Assembly: GCA_041666325.1 (NCBI GenBank) | Contig: JBAYHC010000002.1 | Location: 157,319 to 221,318 of the forward strand | DNA: 64,000 nt | Direction: 5' to 3' | From: Patescibacteria group bacterium | Lineage (GTDB): Bacteria; Patescibacteriota; UBA1384; XYA2-FULL-43-10; 1-14-0-10-43-13 | In this document: positions 7,878 to 45,829 of the stretch, one piece after another | Layout: each line of letters begins with the position of its first letter | Numbering within the stretch: the stretch's first letter is position 1 | Made by a program: the position numbers and the translations under genes | The notes under the pieces: model-generated | The model's input: only the letters and a program-made list of their open reading frames with translations | What the model was told of the DNA's origin: nothing | The model's database searches: none

Positions 7878-7906
7878 CTGATCCGGCGGCGGGGCCGCCG
7901 GATCAG
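7878..7906 (-). repeat. GC-rich hairpin copy A (13-bp stem CTGATCCGGCGGC / GCCGCCGGATCAG, 3-nt loop), immediately 3' of the minus-strand gene at 7915
   Basis: Perfect inverted repeat seen in the sequence; no U-tract follows it in the minus sense. It is near-identical to copy B at 8991-9019, differing by one compensatory base-pair change. Confidence 0.8.
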
Positions 7907-7914
7907 CGTGTGTG

Positions 7915-8850
7915 CTACAGCGTTCTGGCTGTCAGGACTGCGTATGGCTTCTGCGCCCTGACGTTGGTCAGCCGCCACTGATCGTTCCGGCGGTTGACTG
8001 TTACGATGTAGCTCGCCTTGGTGGCGCTGGCACCGCCAAGGATAGAGATCCAGCGGAAGTCTACCCGATACTTCCTGCCCTTCCAGAGGCAAGATGTCTC
8101 GATGGTAGGGGTGATGATTCCGGCCTCGTCGAGCGGAAGGTACGCCAGGTTGGCGCACCTCGTCGTCAGGCCGGGGTTTCCCTCGATGGCTCTGAGGCGA
8201 GCAAACTCCCTCTCGACGAAGGCCGCAGCCGGGTCCTCCTCTGCTCCGGCGTAGGGGTTCAGTCCGCGGTAGTCGTCCCCGATCAGGCTAGGATCGTGCC
8301 TGGGGAAGGGCGGAAGCGGAAAGCCACAGTGCTCGAGCGCCTCTTCGCGGCTGTCGACCTCACGGCCGATGCCCTCGAAAGCGACATTCCAGGACAGGGC
8401 ATTCATACCATAATATGGGATGGCCTCTGGTCTGACGTCGATGTCCCTCGCGGAGTTTATGATCTCCTTTTCCTTCCACTCGGGACAGTTCTTCTTCCTG
8501 TTGATGGTGTAGCGGTAGTGGCCGATCTCACGGCCGGTGGGGAAGCGGTAGATGAGGTGTGCGGCATTGCCGACTACTTCGACCTGGGTGTAATTCTCCA
8601 GGTTGGGCCATGCCTCGAAGATGGCCCAGACACGAGATTGCTCATCTGACCATTCTCCGGTGAAGGTTGGCGGCAGGGAGCCGCCTCGATAGTAGTGGAA
8701 GGTGCTGATGACCTTCTCTTCGTGCTCAGCGCATCGTTGCGACGCTTGCTCGATGTACGGCACTCCGATGCCCACTGCGATCATGCCGGCAAGCCCTGCG
8801 GCAATGAGTGTGGTCAATGCAGTTGCTGCTAGTCTTGTCAATCGTTCCAT
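7915..8850 (-). CDS. Hypothetical exported/membrane-anchored protein, high GC (cassette gene A). The ORF track extends to 8907; the likely start is the Met at 8850 (MERLTRL...)
   Basis: N-terminal hydrophobic segment (LAATALTTLIAAGLAGMIAVGIG), preceded by an AAGGAGAG RBS. GC about 62% versus about 45% for the flanking DNA. No family recognised. Confidence 0.5.
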   Translation of the reverse strand: MERLTRLAATALTTLIAAGLAGMIAVGIGVPYIEQASQRCAEHEEKVISTFHYYRGGSLPPTFTGEWSDEQSRVWAIFEAWPNLENYTQVEVVGNAAHLIYRFPTGREIGHYRYTINRKKNCPEWKEKEIINSARDIDVRPEAIPYYGMNALSWNVAFEGIGREVDSREEALEHCGFPLPPFPRHDPSLIGDDYRGLNPYAGAEEDPAAAFVEREFARLRAIEGNPGLTTRCANLAYLPLDEAGIITPTIETSCLWKGRKYRVDFRWISILGGASATKASYIVTVNRRNDQWRLTNVRAQKPYAVLTARTL

Positions 8851-8925
8851 CTTGCCTCTCCTTGCGTCGTGCACATTGGTGGGCTCGAGTGCCCAACCGA
8901 ATGACAAGCGCCAAACGATGGCTCC

Positions 8926-8943
8926 TGTTTGCGACGATCGAGA
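8926..8943 (-). promoter_or_regulatory. Conserved leader element (plus-strand text GTTTGCGACGATCGAG; minus-sense CTCGATCGTCGCAAAC) upstream of cassette gene A
   Basis: 16/17-nt identity with the element at 10038-10054 upstream of gene B. It sits inside ~130-nt leaders that are about 60-70% identical, while the two coding regions are unrelated. Confidence 0.55.
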
Positions 8944-8990
8944 TTGCTTAATCTAAACAATTATCGATTGTCACAAGAATGGTATTGTTA

Positions 8991-9019
8991 CTGGTCCGGC
9001 GGCGGGGCCGCCGGACCAG
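8991..9019 (-). repeat. GC-rich hairpin copy B (CTGGTCCGGCGGC / GCCGCCGGACCAG), 3' of the minus-strand gene at 9029
   Basis: Perfect 13-bp inverted repeat. It differs from copy A only by the A:T to G:C change at one stem position. Confidence 0.8.
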
Positions 9020-9028
9020 CTGGTATAC

Positions 9029-9970
9029 TTACTTTCGCCACGGCGGGTTGCCGAAGCGACCGAGCGGGATCTGTTTCGTCCCGGCCGTGCCGGTGGCGAT
9101 CAAGAAGTCCTCGGTGCATTCGAGCCTCTTGATGAGGCCGATCTTGGGGTTGATCCCCGTGAACATCTCGCCGAGCTTGTACTTATCCTCGAACGGCTGG
9201 TAGGCGCAGACCGCCCGAATAGTGCGGCCCTCCTCCTCGACAAGGAAGACCACGTCGTTGTGGCGGCGGTTGATTGCGAGGCAGCCGGTGCTGCCGGTGT
9301 TCTTGAACTGGGCGTCCTGGTACCGGGTGCTTTCGGACGGGCTGATGGTCTGGATGATCCCGTCCATCGTTGCGTAGGCGACTGCGCCGGTGCGCAGATC
9401 ATGGTCAAGTGCGGCCACCTCGGAGTTTTCGTTGAACCAGAGCGGCCTGCTCTGGTCCCTGGAGCAGACGGCCCAGCCGACCTTCGGCTTGGGCTCCATG
9501 ATCTGGTGCCAGGTCCTGACCCCGTACACCTGCTGATCGGGTGTGGACATGTAGGCAACCCCAACGAACTGCAGGTAGGCCTCCATGTAGGTGGCCGGCG
9601 TGAAGACCGGTGTTGACACGGCCTCCAGCCAGATGCGCATGCCCGGTTTGAGCTCCTTGAAGCGGAGGTAGTCCGGGTGGGTAGGCGGGATGCAGATCTT
9701 CCGCCAGCCGTCCTGCCCGTAGTTGACCTTGATAGTGATGTGCTTAGTGAAAGCGCGATCACTTCCCATCTGGTCCCCGTAGCTGATGGCGGTAACGACC
9801 CCGCCGTCAGCGAGCGGCTTGACGAACGCCTTCGCCTCCTCTTCGGCTCTCACCTCAGACCTTGCATTCAGGACGTCGTCCTGATGCCAGATCCAGGTTC
9901 CGACCCAGAGGGTCATGAGGATGAGGCAGAATCCAAGCGCGATCTTCAGTGACTTCTCGATCTCTGTCAT
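9029..9970 (-). CDS. Hypothetical membrane-anchored protein, high GC (cassette gene B). The ORF track extends to 10090; the likely start is the Met at 9970 (MTEIEKSLK...). It may be a Cys-dependent peptidase-like protein (STGCLAI)
   Basis: N-terminal TM (IALGFCLILMTLWVGTWIW) and a GGGAGAGAAAG RBS. The leader resembles that of gene A. A weak L,D-transpeptidase-like Cys motif is present, but the family is not established. Confidence 0.5.
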   Translation of the reverse strand: MTEIEKSLKIALGFCLILMTLWVGTWIWHQDDVLNARSEVRAEEEAKAFVKPLADGGVVTAISYGDQMGSDRAFTKHITIKVNYGQDGWRKICIPPTHPDYLRFKELKPGMRIWLEAVSTPVFTPATYMEAYLQFVGVAYMSTPDQQVYGVRTWHQIMEPKPKVGWAVCSRDQSRPLWFNENSEVAALDHDLRTGAVAYATMDGIIQTISPSESTRYQDAQFKNTGSTGCLAINRRHNDVVFLVEEEGRTIRAVCAYQPFEDKYKLGEMFTGINPKIGLIKRLECTEDFLIATGTAGTKQIPLGRFGNPPWRK

Positions 9971-10037
9971 CTGCTTTCTCTCCCAACGTCGCTGGTGGTG
10001 GCGGGTTCTTTTTCCCCAACCCAACTGCAAAGTACTC

Positions 10038-10054
10038 GTTTGCGACGATCGAGC
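10038..10054 (-). promoter_or_regulatory. Conserved leader element (CGTTTGCGACGATCGAG) upstream of cassette gene B
   Basis: Second copy of the element seen at 8926-8943. Confidence 0.55.
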
Positions 10055-10190
10055 TTGTCTGGTCTTGCCAAACAATTTCGATCGCCGCAACGTGTCGACT
10101 TTGAGAAAAATCTATTCTTTCTGATTGTTAAAGAACGTAATATCATATCATAATTTATTAAAATTGTCAATAGAGCCAAGGACAGACTGC

Positions 10191-10218
10191 TTGACATTGG
10201 GTCGTATTGTGATATCAT
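10191..10218 (+). promoter_or_regulatory. Sigma70-like promoter TTGACA-16-TATCAT upstream of the ORF at 10248
   Basis: Consensus -35 at 10191-10196 and a -10-like hexamer at 10213-10218, in an AT-rich intergenic region. Confidence 0.5.
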
Positions 10219-30815: not shown

Positions 30816-30847
30816 TCAATACATAAAGATTAATTCTAAGGTGAAGT

Positions 30848-31303
30848 ATGGAGAATTTAGGACCAAAAGACATCAATGGTTTGTCTGAGAAGGACAGACA
30901 GATGCTGGAGCCTGGTGCGAAGGGCGAGAAGAAACCTGGTGCGGACGCAAAACCAGACAACGTCAGATCTCAGGACTCGCGCGAAGCAGGCGTTCTGCGC
31001 AAAATGGCACGCATAGCCAAGGATAAGGGTGAGATAGTTAAGCTCTTGGCGATGATTGCCAGCTATGAGCATGAGGTTCCGGGCAAGCGGCCGCAGCCTC
31101 CTATTCAGAAGACGGCTATTGTTCGGAATGAGTACGAAGGCCAAGTGGGCACTTCTCAGTCCAAAGCCATCCAGAGTGCTGAGTCTCGGCCGGTCAACAA
31201 ATCGCAAGCCTTTGAATTCGGCGGAAAACAGATAAATGTTTCGTCTCGAAGCCAGGAAAAAGGCACCAATCCACCCGGATCAGCGCAGGGAATCCCTGTT
31301 TAA
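30848..31303 (+). CDS. Hypothetical protein (151 aa), lysine/glutamate-rich
   Basis: ORF followed by a weak terminator-like hairpin at about 31333-31362. No family recognised. Confidence 0.4.
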   Translation: MENLGPKDINGLSEKDRQMLEPGAKGEKKPGADAKPDNVRSQDSREAGVLRKMARIAKDKGEIVKLLAMIASYEHEVPGKRPQPPIQKTAIVRNEYEGQVGTSQSKAIQSAESRPVNKSQAFEFGGKQINVSSRSQEKGTNPPGSAQGIPV

Positions 31304-31368
31304 TATTCAAAAAATGATGTCCTACACGTAAAATATGGTACATGGGCAAGGTCCCGGCCCAATTTTGT

Positions 31369-31397
31369 TGTTGCCCTCTTGACAAATATCCACGCCT
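31369..31397 (+). promoter_or_regulatory. Near-consensus sigma70 promoter (TTGACA-17-TGgTAGCAT) driving a non-coding GC-rich unit
   Basis: -35 TTGACA at 31369-31374, 17-nt spacer, extended -10 TGgTAGCAT ending at 31397. The predicted transcription start is about 31405. Confidence 0.6.
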
Positions 31398-31404
31398 GTG
31401 GTAG

Positions 31405-32550
31405 CATATTGGCCATATCGTCGATGACGTGAGCGACGTTCGGAAGGAAAGGACGGAGGAATGAAGATCCTCGCTGTTCGCTGACCGACACGCGGCGCGG
31501 GCGCTCCTGGCGAGCGCGGATGGTACTGACCTCTTGTAGGTCTGCGGCGAGGCCTTGCCTCACCCATCCGGTTTACGCCAGGCGGGCGTTCGTCCGCCCA
31601 GTTCAAAATCACTTCTGACGAGTTTCCGTCGGCCCAAACCGGCGGAAGGGTCCCGCAGGCAAACCCCTCCAGGGGGTCCGACCGCGACAACGCGGGACTC
31701 ATCACGATGACGGGAGGTACGCATGGTCACGACGCGCACCTCCGCCCAGCACAGCGTTAAGGCCGCTGGCTAGCCAGGCGGACGTCATCACCCACCCTTC
31801 GGTTCGGGAGGCGCGAATGAGGGTAACACCAAGAACGCGCGCCCGCATGGCGCAGGCATTCGGTGCCTGACCAGCCAGCGGGTCACATCATGTCGACTGC
31901 AAGACCGCACGACCAGGCTCCGGCTGATAACATCATGCCGGAACGCCAAAACAATGCGAATAGGAGCCGCTCGACTGAGCGCGGCGCGGACTTGATCCGG
32001 GCAGCCTTCCGCTCAGCGCCATTGAGCTCCTTGCCCCACATGGGGCCGCAATGCAGACGAGGGCCAGCGCCAAATCGGCCCTCACAAGTGCGTTTCAAGC
32101 AGTACCCACCAATAAAGCCCCGGTGAAACTCCGGGACCCTCAGCAAGCAGTGCCTACTAATGTCCGGGTGCAATTCCCGGCTCATGAGGTGCAAGATGAC
32201 TACATGCCAAGTGGCGACGGCGCGGGAAGAGGGTTCCCGTCTGCTATCGCCCCTGGGGTAGTCCACGGAGGGGTCCGGCGGGCGCGGGTTCGAAACCAGC
32301 GCAAAGCCGGCACAGACCGCCGACTAGGTCAAGTGCACAGGCCTAGACGGCCCAGAACGGGCAGCGCCCCTGCCCCGGCCCGCCAGCCTCAGGCTGGAAG
32401 ACAAAAAGGGGTCGGGCGCCTCACGGCGCGCCCACAGGACGCCGGCGCAAGCGCCGGCCGGATCACTCCGCGGGCGTGGGGAGAGCGGCTTTCGCCGCCT
32501 CCCCGCCCCAATCTCAGACGGCAGTCAACCACGACTGCCTGTTTTTTTTA
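31405..32550 (+). ncRNA. Candidate large structured non-coding RNA (about 1.15 kb, about 65% GC); class undetermined
   Basis: Bounded by a strong promoter and a canonical intrinsic terminator. It contains only short Arg/Pro-rich frames typical of GC-rich non-coding DNA, and has many local and long-range stems. A sub-segment (about 32108-32160) loosely resembles the RNase P CR-II/P11 region (GGTGAAACTCC...AGCAAG). No tmRNA or RNase P identity could be established by eye. Confidence 0.4.
32520..32550 (+). terminator. Intrinsic terminator (GGCAGT-CAACCACG-ACTGCC followed by TGTTTTTTTT)
   Basis: Perfect 6-bp GC stem followed by a U8 tract. Confidence 0.8.
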
Positions 32551-32563
32551 TTTAGAATCCATA

Positions 32564-32601
32564 TTATGCTGAAAACAGTCGATCGTGTATAATCAGCATA
32601 A
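32564..32601 (+). promoter_or_regulatory. Operator-like 9-bp inverted repeat (TTATGCTGA...TCAGCATAA) enclosing GTCGATCGTG and the TATAAT -10 of the PaaX-like gene
   Basis: Perfect IR seen in the sequence. It overlaps the TATAAT box at 32588-32593, about 35 nt upstream of the ATG. This is copy 1 of the motif TGCTGAAnAnnGTCGATCGTGyATA. Confidence 0.5.
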
Positions 32602-32631
32602 GATTATTTAGTACTCAAACAGGAGTGGGCG

Positions 32632-33228
32632 ATGACAAATATCAGAGGTAAGAAGATCATAGAATGGAGAGACGAGAACTACTATAGACGCAGAAGACCG
32701 ATGGCCCAAAAAGCAAGATCTACCGTTGAAGCAACGCTTGATCTGTTGTTGGCAGTGCCGGAGAGTTTGGTGGCAGTGTTTGAGCGAAGGTCAATCTACG
32801 AAGCAATAAGCACTTCTTCGGAAAAAGTGTTGACGGTTGAGAATATCAGTAAGATTTTTCATGGCCTGAAGCGCACTGGATACATCGAAACTACCAAGGA
32901 CAGTAGTGGCCTTGAGTCAGTCCAATTTACCAATAAAGCTAAGCTAAGAGTCATTGATGCAATTGCCGGTTGCCAGGGTTGGGATGAGAAATATCGTTTG
33001 GTTTCATTTGATATTCCTGAACGAATGAGGAACAATCGCGACAAGTTTCGTCGGGCAATCAAGAGGATCGGATTTAGGCAGATCCAAAAAAGCCTCTGGG
33101 TATGCAATCGGAACGTCGAAGAGCTGGTCGGCGTCGCATCGAACGAATACGGTGTTTCGACCTACACTGTCTGTGTCATTGCCGACAAGACAGATATCGA
33201 TAGCGCTATCAGCAAGATGTTCAAATAA
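32632..33228 (+). CDS. PaaX-like transcriptional regulator (N-terminal winged helix plus PaaX_C-type C-terminal domain)
   Basis: wHTH-like segment (ISKIFHGLKRTGYIE) and a C-terminal region colinear with E. coli PaaX (WDEKYRLVSFDIPERMRNNRDKFRRAIKRIGFRQIQKSLWV versus WDGKWLLLLSEGL...VKKQLIWQGFGALAPSLMA). AGGAGTGGG RBS. Confidence 0.6.
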   Translation: MTNIRGKKIIEWRDENYYRRRRPMAQKARSTVEATLDLLLAVPESLVAVFERRSIYEAISTSSEKVLTVENISKIFHGLKRTGYIETTKDSSGLESVQFTNKAKLRVIDAIAGCQGWDEKYRLVSFDIPERMRNNRDKFRRAIKRIGFRQIQKSLWVCNRNVEELVGVASNEYGVSTYTVCVIADKTDIDSAISKMFK

Positions 33229-33259
33229 GGGTGGATATATTTTTTGAATGAAGAATCCT

Positions 33260-33287
33260 CTGCTGAATATCGTCGATCGTGCATAGG
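33260..33287 (+). promoter_or_regulatory. Second copy of the motif (CTGCTGAATATCGTCGATCGTGCATAGG), downstream of the PaaX-like gene and upstream of the second GC-rich unit
   Basis: 20 of 23 positions identical to copy 1 at 32569-32595. Confidence 0.45.
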
Positions 33288-33386
33288 CATAGGAAGATAT
33301 GAAGACGCGGTGGCGGGAAACATTTTTGTGGATAAATATTTAATTCAGGTATTGCAATTGCCGGAAAGTCTGCTAACATAGCATTA

Positions 33387-33765
33387 AATCTGGCAGGGCC
33401 AGCACTATCCAGTCCGGAGTTTACTCCTGTAAAGGTCGAGGACTGGAATCGGCTCTGTTGGGTTCGAGTCAGTGGTTGGCACCCCTCTGCGGGGTCGCAG
33501 CGCCGCTGGCTCTAGGAGAACACCATTGCCACTCACTCTCCGCCGGCCGTCGTGGTCGGCAACAGCAACAAGCTGATCGATGCTGCGACCCGGAACGACC
33601 TGGGCGCGCACGCCAAGCAGGAGTCCCTGACGGGCTGACACATCACCAACAACCACAGCCATAAGGGGAACGAAGGGGTCATTGACCCGAGTTGATGCCA
33701 CCGGGGCATCGACATCGACATGCGGGAGCATGCACCCACCCGGGGTGTGTGCCCCCGCTCTTTTT
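33387..33765 (+). ncRNA. Second candidate structured non-coding RNA (about 380 nt, GC-rich); class undetermined
   Basis: Candidate promoter TTGCAA-16-TAACAT (33353-33380). Downstream hairpin CGGGG-TGTGTGC-CCCCG followed by CTCTTTTT at about 33741-33765. No credible ORF. Contains a T-loop-like GGGTTCGAGTC sequence, but no tRNA fold could be built around it. Confidence 0.3.
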
Positions 33766-33977
33766 GTATCCAGGGTGCAAGCAGCAATATGAAGGGCGAG
33801 AGCAAGGGGATCCTTTGCGCGAATTCGTTCGAATCAATGTCGAAGGATTCAGGATGACAGGGCGGCAGGATGGCGGGAAAGAGGAGCGTCCTTGAATCCG
33901 GAGTCTGGAAGTGGTAAGCTGAGGCCATAGTTCTTAAAGTTTGTAAAGTTCTTAAAGTTGAAATGTAAATTTCTATA

Positions 33978-34295
33978 TTGCCTTATGAACCTTATGAACA
34001 AATTGACATGATTGATATCGAACAAGTAAAACATATTGCCAAGTTGTCTCGATTGGAATTAACACCCGAAGAGGAGAAGAAATACTCAGAACAGCTCTCC
34101 TCGATTTTGGATTATGTTGAACAATTAAATGAAGTTAATACAGACGGTATTCCGCCCATGGCCAATATTACCGGCATGTCCAACGTGTTTCGCGATGACG
34201 GAGTAGAGCCATCCGGTATTTCGCATACCGACATTGCTCAGAATGCGCCAGAGTTTAGAGACGGGTCTTTTGTCGTGCCAGGAGTATTTGAGTGA
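33978..34295 (+). CDS. gatC: Asp/Glu-tRNA(Asn/Gln) amidotransferase subunit C
   Basis: GatC-like sequence (VKHIAKLSRLELTPEEEKKYSEQLSSILDYVEQLNEV) immediately upstream of gatA. The start may be the Met at 34008. Confidence 0.8.
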   Translation: MPYEPYEQIDMIDIEQVKHIAKLSRLELTPEEEKKYSEQLSSILDYVEQLNEVNTDGIPPMANITGMSNVFRDDGVEPSGISHTDIAQNAPEFRDGSFVVPGVFE

Positions 34296-45645: not shown

Positions 45646-45829
45646 TTTATAAAGTTAAAAGTTCCTAAAGTTTGTAAAATAGCTCTCATCTGTCGGGGGT
45701 CATCCCAACCCATTGATCTTTGAGGCGGAGGGATCCTCCAGCATGCTAGATTAAATCTCTCAGAATAACTTTATTGCTTTATAACCTTACGAACTTTATA
45801 AACTTTATGAACTCTAATCAAGGAGTTTT

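Follow-up and report, generated by a model that had tools for sequence, protein, structure and literature searches.

A 64-kb stretch of a Patescibacteria (candidate phyla radiation, CPR) contig, 64,000 nucleotides (nt) long with a GC content of ∼46% and referred to below as the window, contains a gene for a 198-residue protein related to the transcriptional regulator PaaX. We conclude that this protein is probably a dimeric autorepressor of the PaaX type that lacks an effector domain, and that it would act on one operator within its own promoter and on an auxiliary operator just past the end of its gene. The evidence is comparative: pairs of matching palindromes bracket the genes of homologous regulators, the upstream member of each pair lies at the promoter, and a single residue of the protein changes together with the bases at the palindrome center.

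Paired palindromes flank the regulator genes

The comparison set consists of 34 homologous loci from GTDB genomes and 8 contigs that were fetched later as a test. In ∼30 of the 34 loci and in the 8 test loci, a 34–40-bp palindrome is found both upstream and downstream of a gene for a ∼180-residue protein with a winged helix–turn–helix (wHTH) and a Cas2-like domain. The downstream palindrome lies between −5 and +100 nt past the stop codon, with one at +221, and both copies are present in 29 loci, the window included. The density of palindromes symmetric at 14 or more of 17 positions is 2.36 per kb up to 170 nt from the gene ends and 0.053 per kb over the other 244 kb of the loci, and the 8.5-kb loci contain at most one or two extra copies.

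The palindrome center is mostly CGATCG, with CGGCCG, TGGCCA, CAGCTG, CGTACG and CTATAG as variants. Read outward from the dyad, the half-site logo consists of T-C-G (83–95%), T (69%) and two variable positions, followed by an A/T-rich segment at positions 7–12, three variable positions and then G-A-A-A. The arms match within a locus and differ between paralogues: copies from the same locus are identical at 27.9 of 34 positions, and copies from different loci at 15.7 of 34. Locus L008, for instance, has tctacaaatctggaCGATCGtccagatttgtaga on each flank, and the palindromes of L021 and L015 read atgacaaaaactcaCGATCGtgagtttttgtcat and ccaggaataatcaaTGGCCAttgattattcctgg, respectively. Mean symmetry is higher in the downstream than in the upstream copies (14.4 versus 13.3 of 17 positions), and 10 of 30 downstream copies are perfect. 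A third cognate copy occurs 1.7–1.9 kb away in L012 and L019, where neighboring genes are bracketed as well, and the downstream palindrome of L017 overlies the promoter of the next gene; these members of the family are predicted to control small local regulons.

In the window, the 25-nt motif TGCTGAANANNGTCGATCGTGYATA has two exact + strand matches, at 32567–32591 and 33261–33285, on either side of the regulator gene (32632–33228, + strand). A sequence-only reading of this stretch had proposed such a motif twice around the regulator, and both copies are indeed there, at positions that differ by 1–4 nt from those first given. No further match was found across the window with up to 3 mismatches allowed, 100 shuffles of the window gave zero matches, and there are no other operator-like palindromes in the 64 kb. 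The likeness between the two copies spans 38 nt (74% identity). The window motif can be read as a worn local version of the family-wide palindrome pair; an idealized palindrome for this regulator would be TTATGCTGAAnAnnGTCGATCGACnnTnTTCAGCATAA. Scattering of the motif, or its loss beside related regulators, had been named beforehand as grounds for abandoning the proposal; the motif is unscattered and is kept next to homologous regulators.

The predicted upstream operator (copy 1, 32564–32601, no strand assigned) is a 38-bp imperfect palindrome with its core CGATCG at 32580–32585. Its outer arms, TTATGCTGA at 32564–32572 and TCAGCATAA at 32593–32601, form the 9-bp inverted repeat over the TATAAT box that the sequence-only reading had correctly recognized. 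Symmetry is retained at 12 of 17 positions, comprising the left arm, the core and the outer right arm; the inner right arm, now TGTATAAT, has been supplanted by the −10 box (TATAAT, 32586–32591, + strand), which lies 40 nt 5′ of the ATG at 32632. This start codon is backed by a Shine–Dalgarno sequence, AGGAG (32621–32625, + strand), 6 nt upstream. The palindrome ends 32 nt before the start, close to the family median of 31 nt (interquartile range 20–52 nt), and in both location and form copy 1 fits the upstream palindromes seen throughout the family.

Copy 2 (33260–33293, no strand assigned; core CGATCG at 33274–33279) is the counterpart of the downstream palindrome in 30 loci. It begins 32 nt past the stop codon (33226–33228) and ends 68 nt before a promoter-like TTGCAA-16-TAACAT (33353–33380), as expected from the earlier placement just 3′ of the stop and ∼70 nt 5′ of the promoter of a second GC-rich unit. 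Its left arm and core are conserved with copy 1 and its right arm has decayed, making it, at 9 of 17 symmetric positions, the most degenerate site in the set. The window locus is an ordinary, somewhat decayed member of the family.

A short PaaX relative with a Cas2-like domain

The mini-PaaX protein of the window matches PF20803 (PaaX_M, the central Cas2-like domain of PaaX) over residues 116–188 with an E-value of 6.4e-18 and 65 bits, well above the cutoff of 24, and the domain is present in all 120 homologues listed. Pfam gave zero matches to PaaX_C in the 198-residue protein, which terminates ∼10 residues past the PaaX_M match and scores 22.6 bits against TIGR02277, where the cutoff is 264.55. 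The protein had been labeled PaaX_C-type from its sequence alone; that label is wrong, the domain being PaaX_M with the C-terminal PaaX domain not found. Cas2 models give marginal, partial matches over residues 120–165 (TIGR01573, 26.7 versus a cutoff of 24.5; PF09827, 24.9 versus 23.8), and a Cas2 motif is recognizable as SFDIPE … QKSLW.

The AlphaFold2 model has a mean predicted local distance difference test score (pLDDT) of 77, rising above 90 in the C-terminal domain. An N-terminal helical, winged domain, with the wHTH elements at 52–61 and 69–82 (helices) and 85–99 (β-wing), is followed by a β-α-β-β-α-β ferredoxin fold. The best fold matches in the PDB are the PaaX-like Rv0674 (3kfw) and Escherichia coli PaaX (8a39), next to which come Cas2 proteins (Foldseek probability 0.94–0.99); the match to PaaX and Rv0674 extends over their N-terminal and middle domains (129–139 columns). 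A weak profile match (E = 0.083) was also obtained to 6jbx, a transcriptional regulator of fatty-acid biosynthesis, in its wHTH. The ∼180-residue homologues are abundant across CPR metagenomes, with 3–4 divergent paralogues in several genomes, and a profile search of 1.84 billion representatives returned 1,502 clusters (50% identity) at E ≤ 1e-10, and 62 at the stricter E ≤ 1e-30.

Residue 153 covaries with the palindrome center

For the first 33 loci with a recognizable flanking palindrome, we compared the center of the palindrome with the alignment column of Lys153 (QIQ-K-SLW). All loci whose core is an intact CGATCG, CGTACG or CTATAG have lysine, the CGGCCG and TGGCCA loci have glutamine, and the CAGCTG locus has asparagine; L029 has an arginine, and its downstream copy reads CGATCA. 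The relationship was tested prospectively by choosing homologues for a glutamine or arginine at position 153 and then fetching the 8 new contigs. All seven glutamine proteins are flanked by CGGCCG-centered palindromes (one copy reads CGGTCG), and the arginine protein by palindromes centered on CGTACG. Over the total of 41 loci, Lys or Arg at 153 goes with an A/T center in 29 of 29 cases and Gln or Asn with a G/C center in 12 of 12. The Gln/Asn state is polyphyletic, falling by an approximate count in at least six separate places among the Lys lineages of a neighbor-joining tree. In the AlphaFold2 model, residue 153 forms the turn at the tip of the β2–β3 hairpin, between strands 149–152 and 155–160, where pLDDT exceeds 90.

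The covariation therefore argues for direct readout. As comparative evidence it speaks strongly for contact between the protein itself and the palindrome, with the central base pairs read by the Cas2-like dimer. The pattern of conservation is similar, in that a near-invariant Cas2-like domain parallels the near-invariant core and a variable wHTH region parallels the variable arms, which fits a Cas2-like domain that reads the center. A mutual-information screen of wHTH columns against arm positions was too noisy at 41 loci to name specificity residues.

The upstream palindrome lies at the promoter

A −10 box that matches at 5 or more of 6 positions is present in 27 loci, and in 24 of them its first base lies −14 to +22 nt from the end of the upstream palindrome. 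The palindrome therefore covers either the −35 element and spacer or, L034 and the window being examples, the −10 box, a position that is classical for the operator of a putative autorepressor. The earlier proposal that the window motif is the regulator's own promoter-overlapping operator draws support from the architecture of ∼30 of the 34 loci, from this overlap throughout the family, and from the covariation of residue 153 with the center.

In ∼13 loci the −10 box ends 6–8 nt 5′ of the ATG, a short gap that suggests leaderless mRNAs. A −10 box at this distance and no Shine–Dalgarno sequence is the arrangement in L006, L007, L009, L010, L017, L021, L022, L027 and L036–L038; the regulator gene of the window, by contrast, has a 5′ untranslated region (UTR) of ∼30–35 nt with AGGAG.

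The mismatches in imperfect palindromes bear on whether the sites function as DNA or RNA. A G:T mismatch would be a G:U pair in + strand RNA, and an A:C mismatch a G:U pair in − strand RNA. The two occur 23 versus 27 times in upstream copies and 12 versus 17 times in downstream copies, with no bias toward G:U on either strand, and for this reason the sites appear to act as DNA rather than as RNA hairpins. That the palindromes are hairpins of a 5′-UTR structure and of a terminator or stabilizer, perhaps bound or cut by an RNase-like Cas2-like domain, is in our estimation extremely unlikely, even though a perfect 34-nt palindrome would give a long hairpin as RNA, the downstream copy lies within the 3′ region of the transcript, and ribonucleases occur among the relatives of Cas2 and VapD. 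With its position on or before the −10 box, and with many of the genes seemingly leaderless, the upstream copy would mostly go untranscribed; the downstream palindromes are not followed by a U-tract that is consistent among the loci; and the identical sequence of the 5′ and 3′ elements would be left unexplained. We reject an RNA hairpin on the mismatch statistics and the promoter position.

A model for autoregulation

From the conservation of the sites, their position at promoters, their symmetry at the DNA level and the residue–base covariation, we infer dimer binding, repression and looping as follows. With its wHTH and Cas2-like dimerization domain and no ligand-binding C-terminal domain, the protein would constitute a minimal PaaX-type repressor. 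A dimer would bind the 34–40-bp palindrome, the two winged helices reading the variable, paralogue-specific outer arms and the hairpin tips of the Cas2-like dimer (Lys153) reading the conserved central CGATCG. Protein bound to copy 1, which lies over the gene's own −35 and −10 elements, would block RNA polymerase and repress the gene. Copy 2 would serve as an auxiliary operator that most likely loops out the ∼0.7-kb gene together with copy 1, or alternatively acts as a roadblock to read-through transcription, and would control no particular neighbor.

The downstream copy is present whether the next gene is in tandem (∼18 loci) or convergent (∼12 loci), and the neighbors are unrelated housekeeping genes, among them ligA and genes for tRNA synthetases, SecA, CTP synthase, UvrD, HsdM, GT4, NUDIX and UbiA proteins. 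Its presence regardless of the identity and orientation of the neighbor indicates that it is tied to the regulator gene and not to a conserved target. The higher symmetry of the downstream copies is the pattern that would be expected, by analogy with looping systems, of a strong auxiliary operator that aids a weaker, promoter-constrained one.

Several points weigh against this model. The scan for operator sites in the source organism covered 64 kb of its genome. Binding in the window may be weak, as copy 2 is without its right arm and copy 1 without its inner right arm. The downstream copy lies between convergent genes in ∼12 loci and elsewhere 40–250 nt 5′ of tandem genes, and its role in looping or as a roadblock is arrived at by exclusion. 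A 34–40-bp site that is symmetric throughout could also suit recognition of cruciform or hairpin DNA. Finally, the neighbor-joining tree of these 180-residue proteins is weakly resolved, which makes the number of Lys/Gln switches approximate.

A wider regulon, mobility and cassette exchange

The sequence-only reading went beyond autoregulation to suggest that the regulator, through copy 2 and through cores of the TCGATCGT type, controls two GC-rich candidate non-coding RNAs (ncRNAs) beside it and two cassette genes at 8.9 and 10.0 kb. We consider this unlikely. Copy 2 does lie just 68 nt 5′ of the promoter-like site of the second GC-rich unit, and in L012, L019 and L017 cognate sites stand before neighboring genes or on the next promoter. 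GC-rich segments begin 100–250 nt past the stop in 5 of the 34 homologous loci (L007, L008, L009, L011 and L018), against a chance expectation of ∼0.4–0.5; none of these segments is homologous to the units of the window. Searches with blastn and tblastx found no homology of the GC-rich neighbors to one another or to the window's units, save weak tblastx matches between L018 and L026 (E ∼1e-5), and no conserved ncRNA family beside these regulators. In L007 and L009 the GC-rich cassettes are convergent, with a terminator rather than a promoter facing the palindrome, and throughout the family the downstream palindrome is found whatever the neighbor's identity or orientation.

We reject the link to the cassette genes. 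CGATCG occurs at 8935 and 10046 within CTCGATCGTCGCAAAC, which is indeed in both leaders, but they share with the motif just the 8-nt core TCGATCGT, lack cognate arms and are non-palindromic (0–3 of 14 positions). CGATCG itself occurs 16 times in the window against ∼13 expected, and the element common to the leaders is part of a ∼70-nt paralogous leader. A possible third operator at the promoter and transcription start of the first GC-rich unit (31415, ATATCGTCGAT) proved to be a chance 11-mer: the window has 2 such matches where 2.2 would be expected, and the second falls inside a coding region. Within the 64 kb a regulon does not find support from these comparisons: the leaders have the core only, the unit 1 site is explained by chance, the downstream copy is independent of its neighbor, and the GC-rich neighbors are not homologous. 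Control of unit 2 by copy 2 is conceivable, but this copy is the most degenerate site of the family and lies ∼60–70 nt 5′ of the unit 2 promoter.

The pairing of palindromes around a gene also invites the reading that they are the ends or recombination sites of a once or still mobile cassette, comparable to REP elements and their RAYT proteins, or a landing site for exchange of GC-rich cassettes, comparable to integron attI. We regard this as quite unlikely. Several divergent paralogous modules occur per genome between unrelated housekeeping genes; palindromes bracket neighboring genes too in L012 and L019; the protein has a Cas2-like domain; and the nearest relatives lack the whole 3.2-kb island that separates ligA from gatC in the window. 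L007 (4624–5317) and L009 (4620–5754) are syntenic orthologues that carry different convergent single-gene GC-rich cassettes, with homology ending within 6 nt of the edge of the downstream palindrome and resuming past the cassettes. This breakpoint evidence comes from a single orthologue pair, however, and the modules have no recombinase, transposase or Cas1 in or beside them. The paralogues are ∼37–55% identical to the window protein, which argues against recent transposition, orthologous modules are syntenic (L007/L009, L021/L027 and the L030 group with its GT4 neighbor), the cognate palindrome is limited to its two copies in 64 kb, and no relatives of the regulator were found on viral contigs. 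A more specific proposal makes the modules fixed landing pads in streamlined CPR genomes, where a dimer at the downstream palindrome would mark or mediate insertion and exchange of foreign GC-rich cassettes, whether single genes or ncRNAs. It would explain the GC-rich DNA that starts at the palindrome edge in L007 and L009, the island of the window and the bracketed neighbors in L012 and L019, and if true would give a Cas2 relative an integron-like or adaptation-like role outside CRISPR; we rate it as very unlikely. Autorepression from paired operators remains our preferred reading.

The GC-rich units, the island and other features

The first GC-rich unit (31379–32550, + strand) has a strong σ70-like promoter (TTGACA-17-TAGCAT, 31379–31407), ∼1.13 kb of DNA with 65% GC and a terminator at 32520–32550. 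It shows no codon periodicity and has a fold z-score of −2.9, which makes it a candidate large ncRNA, without detectable relatives. The second (33353–33768, + strand) starts from the promoter-like TTGCAA-16-TAACAT described above, comprises ∼380 nt and has a terminator at 33741–33765. Its folding relative to shuffles gives z = −4.3 on the + strand and −1.4 on the − strand, and a weak GC3 periodicity fits a 131-residue open reading frame (ORF) on the minus strand (33533–33928), so that coding and non-coding are both candidates. Both units are plausible structured RNAs, without comparative support. Rfam gave nothing credible for the units or the motif, either with the whole window at gathering thresholds or with 31250–34050 at E ≤ 10. 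Several of the GC-rich neighbors in homologous loci are cassettes that code for protein, each with a promoter and a terminator of its own.

The window locus is 100% identical in four other public assemblies, GCA_041659665.1 included, and these yield no covariation data. The nearest sampled GatA homologues are 69–72% identical and include metagenome-assembled genomes annotated Candidatus Berkelbacteria. In the two nearest relatives (L090, 6670–7678; L091, 6778–7688), ligA is followed by a PHP-domain gene and gatC, with neither a regulator nor GC-rich DNA, and the gene order is otherwise conserved. The segment between ligA and gatC in the window (30816–33977) contains a 151-residue ORF, unit 1, the regulator module and unit 2. 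Since the nearest relatives lack this insert, its 3.2 kb represent a lineage-specific island; the upstream 151-residue ORF is an orphan for which a homologue search found none. Regulator modules and GC-rich cassettes both sit in variable slots. Just 5′ of gatC (33929–33959) there are three repeats of the 13-nt unit AGTTCTTAAAGTT, spaced by 9 nt, with related intergenic copies at 45660–45678 and 45783–45813.

The two cassette genes (7915–8907 and 9029–10090, minus strand, in the region 7880–10200) are GC-rich, have their own promoters, find no match in Pfam and encode an N-terminal membrane-like segment. Their terminator stems (CCGGCGGCCCCGCCGCCGG) are near-identical, and both genes have the ∼70-nt conserved leader with CTCGATCGTCGCAAAC, a possible cis-regulatory RNA.

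A metagenome scan for TGCTGAANANNGTCGATCGTG was uninformative, returning 43 single matches in unrelated and mostly GC-rich organisms, many of them intragenic and none beside a homologue. This 21-nt pattern recurs by chance (L039–L081); within genes, GTGCTGAACAA(A/G)GTCGATCGTG encodes VLNKVDR, the NKxD motif of GTPases, and such intragenic matches call for caution in motif scans built on that core.

Implications

Very few transcription factors have been characterized in CPR bacteria. The present family is large and its sites are predictable, as each gene is flanked by its own cognate site, which can be read from the genome. Residue 153 supplies a testable recognition rule, with Lys or Arg going with an A/T center and Gln or Asn with a G/C center, and this rule attributes the reading of sequence to a Cas2-like domain whose counterpart in PaaX is described solely as a dimerization motif. 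What is new in this work, and open to direct test, is the family-level architecture together with the residue 153 rule. The paralogues would offer natural orthogonal repressor–operator pairs that could serve genetics and synthetic biology in these tool-poor organisms. For the window itself, the outcome is that an attractive but unsupported regulon is removed, and that the regulator and both GC-rich units are placed in a lineage-specific island.

Comparison with known systems

We found no description of this regulator family or of the operator–gene–operator layout in the literature, although our coverage was incomplete and this is weak evidence of novelty. An integron-like cassette platform would have a site-specific recombinase next to its attachment site; no integrase or recombinase domain is present in the module or its neighbors. 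RAYT (TnpA_REP) proteins with their REP and REPIN elements are alike in having a paralogue-specific palindrome on both flanks and several such pairs per genome. The window protein, however, is not an HUH/Y1 transposase (Pfam and NCBIfam give PaaX_M and Cas2 only), and its palindromes are undispersed, with 2 in 64 kb, and belong to a family of 34–40-bp dyads that overlap promoters.

With Cas2 the window protein shares the ferredoxin-like fold, the motif and marginal hidden Markov model matches. Within the Cas1–Cas2 complex, the Cas2 dimer sits on double-stranded DNA. Here the domain is fused to a wHTH and its contact with DNA is apparently sequence-specific; there are no tandem or CRISPR arrays in the 64 kb, and no cas1 or other cas genes among the annotated neighbors in the window or the homologous loci.

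The closest relatives are PaaX of E. coli and Pseudomonas (8a39, 3l09) and Rv0674 (3kfw), which have the same N-terminal wHTH and central Cas2-like dimerization domain. The binding site of E. coli PaaX is TGATTC-N27-GAATCA, a palindrome of 39 bp, and the protein acts on its own promoter as a repressor through steric hindrance (review PMC9493321). This very long palindrome with widely spaced half-sites has the same geometry as the sites of the window family. Of the features that define PaaX, the window protein has the wHTH and PF20803 and lacks the C-terminal phenylacetyl-CoA effector domain and the full-length score: it has 198 residues without the PaaX_C effector domain, compared with ∼305–316 residues in PaaX. 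There are no paa genes nearby, the neighbors being ligA and gatCAB in the window and diverse housekeeping genes elsewhere. The family also differs from PaaX in that the center of its site is conserved and apparently read by the Cas2-like domain, in having operators on both sides of the gene, and in being present in multiple copies in Berkelbacteria-like CPR genomes.

The mode of action that we favor places the family alongside the looping repressors with auxiliary operators, such as lambda CI with OL and OR, lac with O1, O2 and O3, gal with OE and OI, and deoR. In these systems, as here, a gene or promoter is located between two cognate operators a few hundred bp to several kb apart, and the distal site is often the better match while the promoter-proximal one is compromised, a difference that has its counterpart in the mean symmetries of the downstream and upstream palindromes. 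The fold of the window protein is different, and looping, which would apply here by inference only, is joined to an arrangement that sets the family apart: in nearly every member, the second operator lies just past the stop codon of the regulator's own gene.

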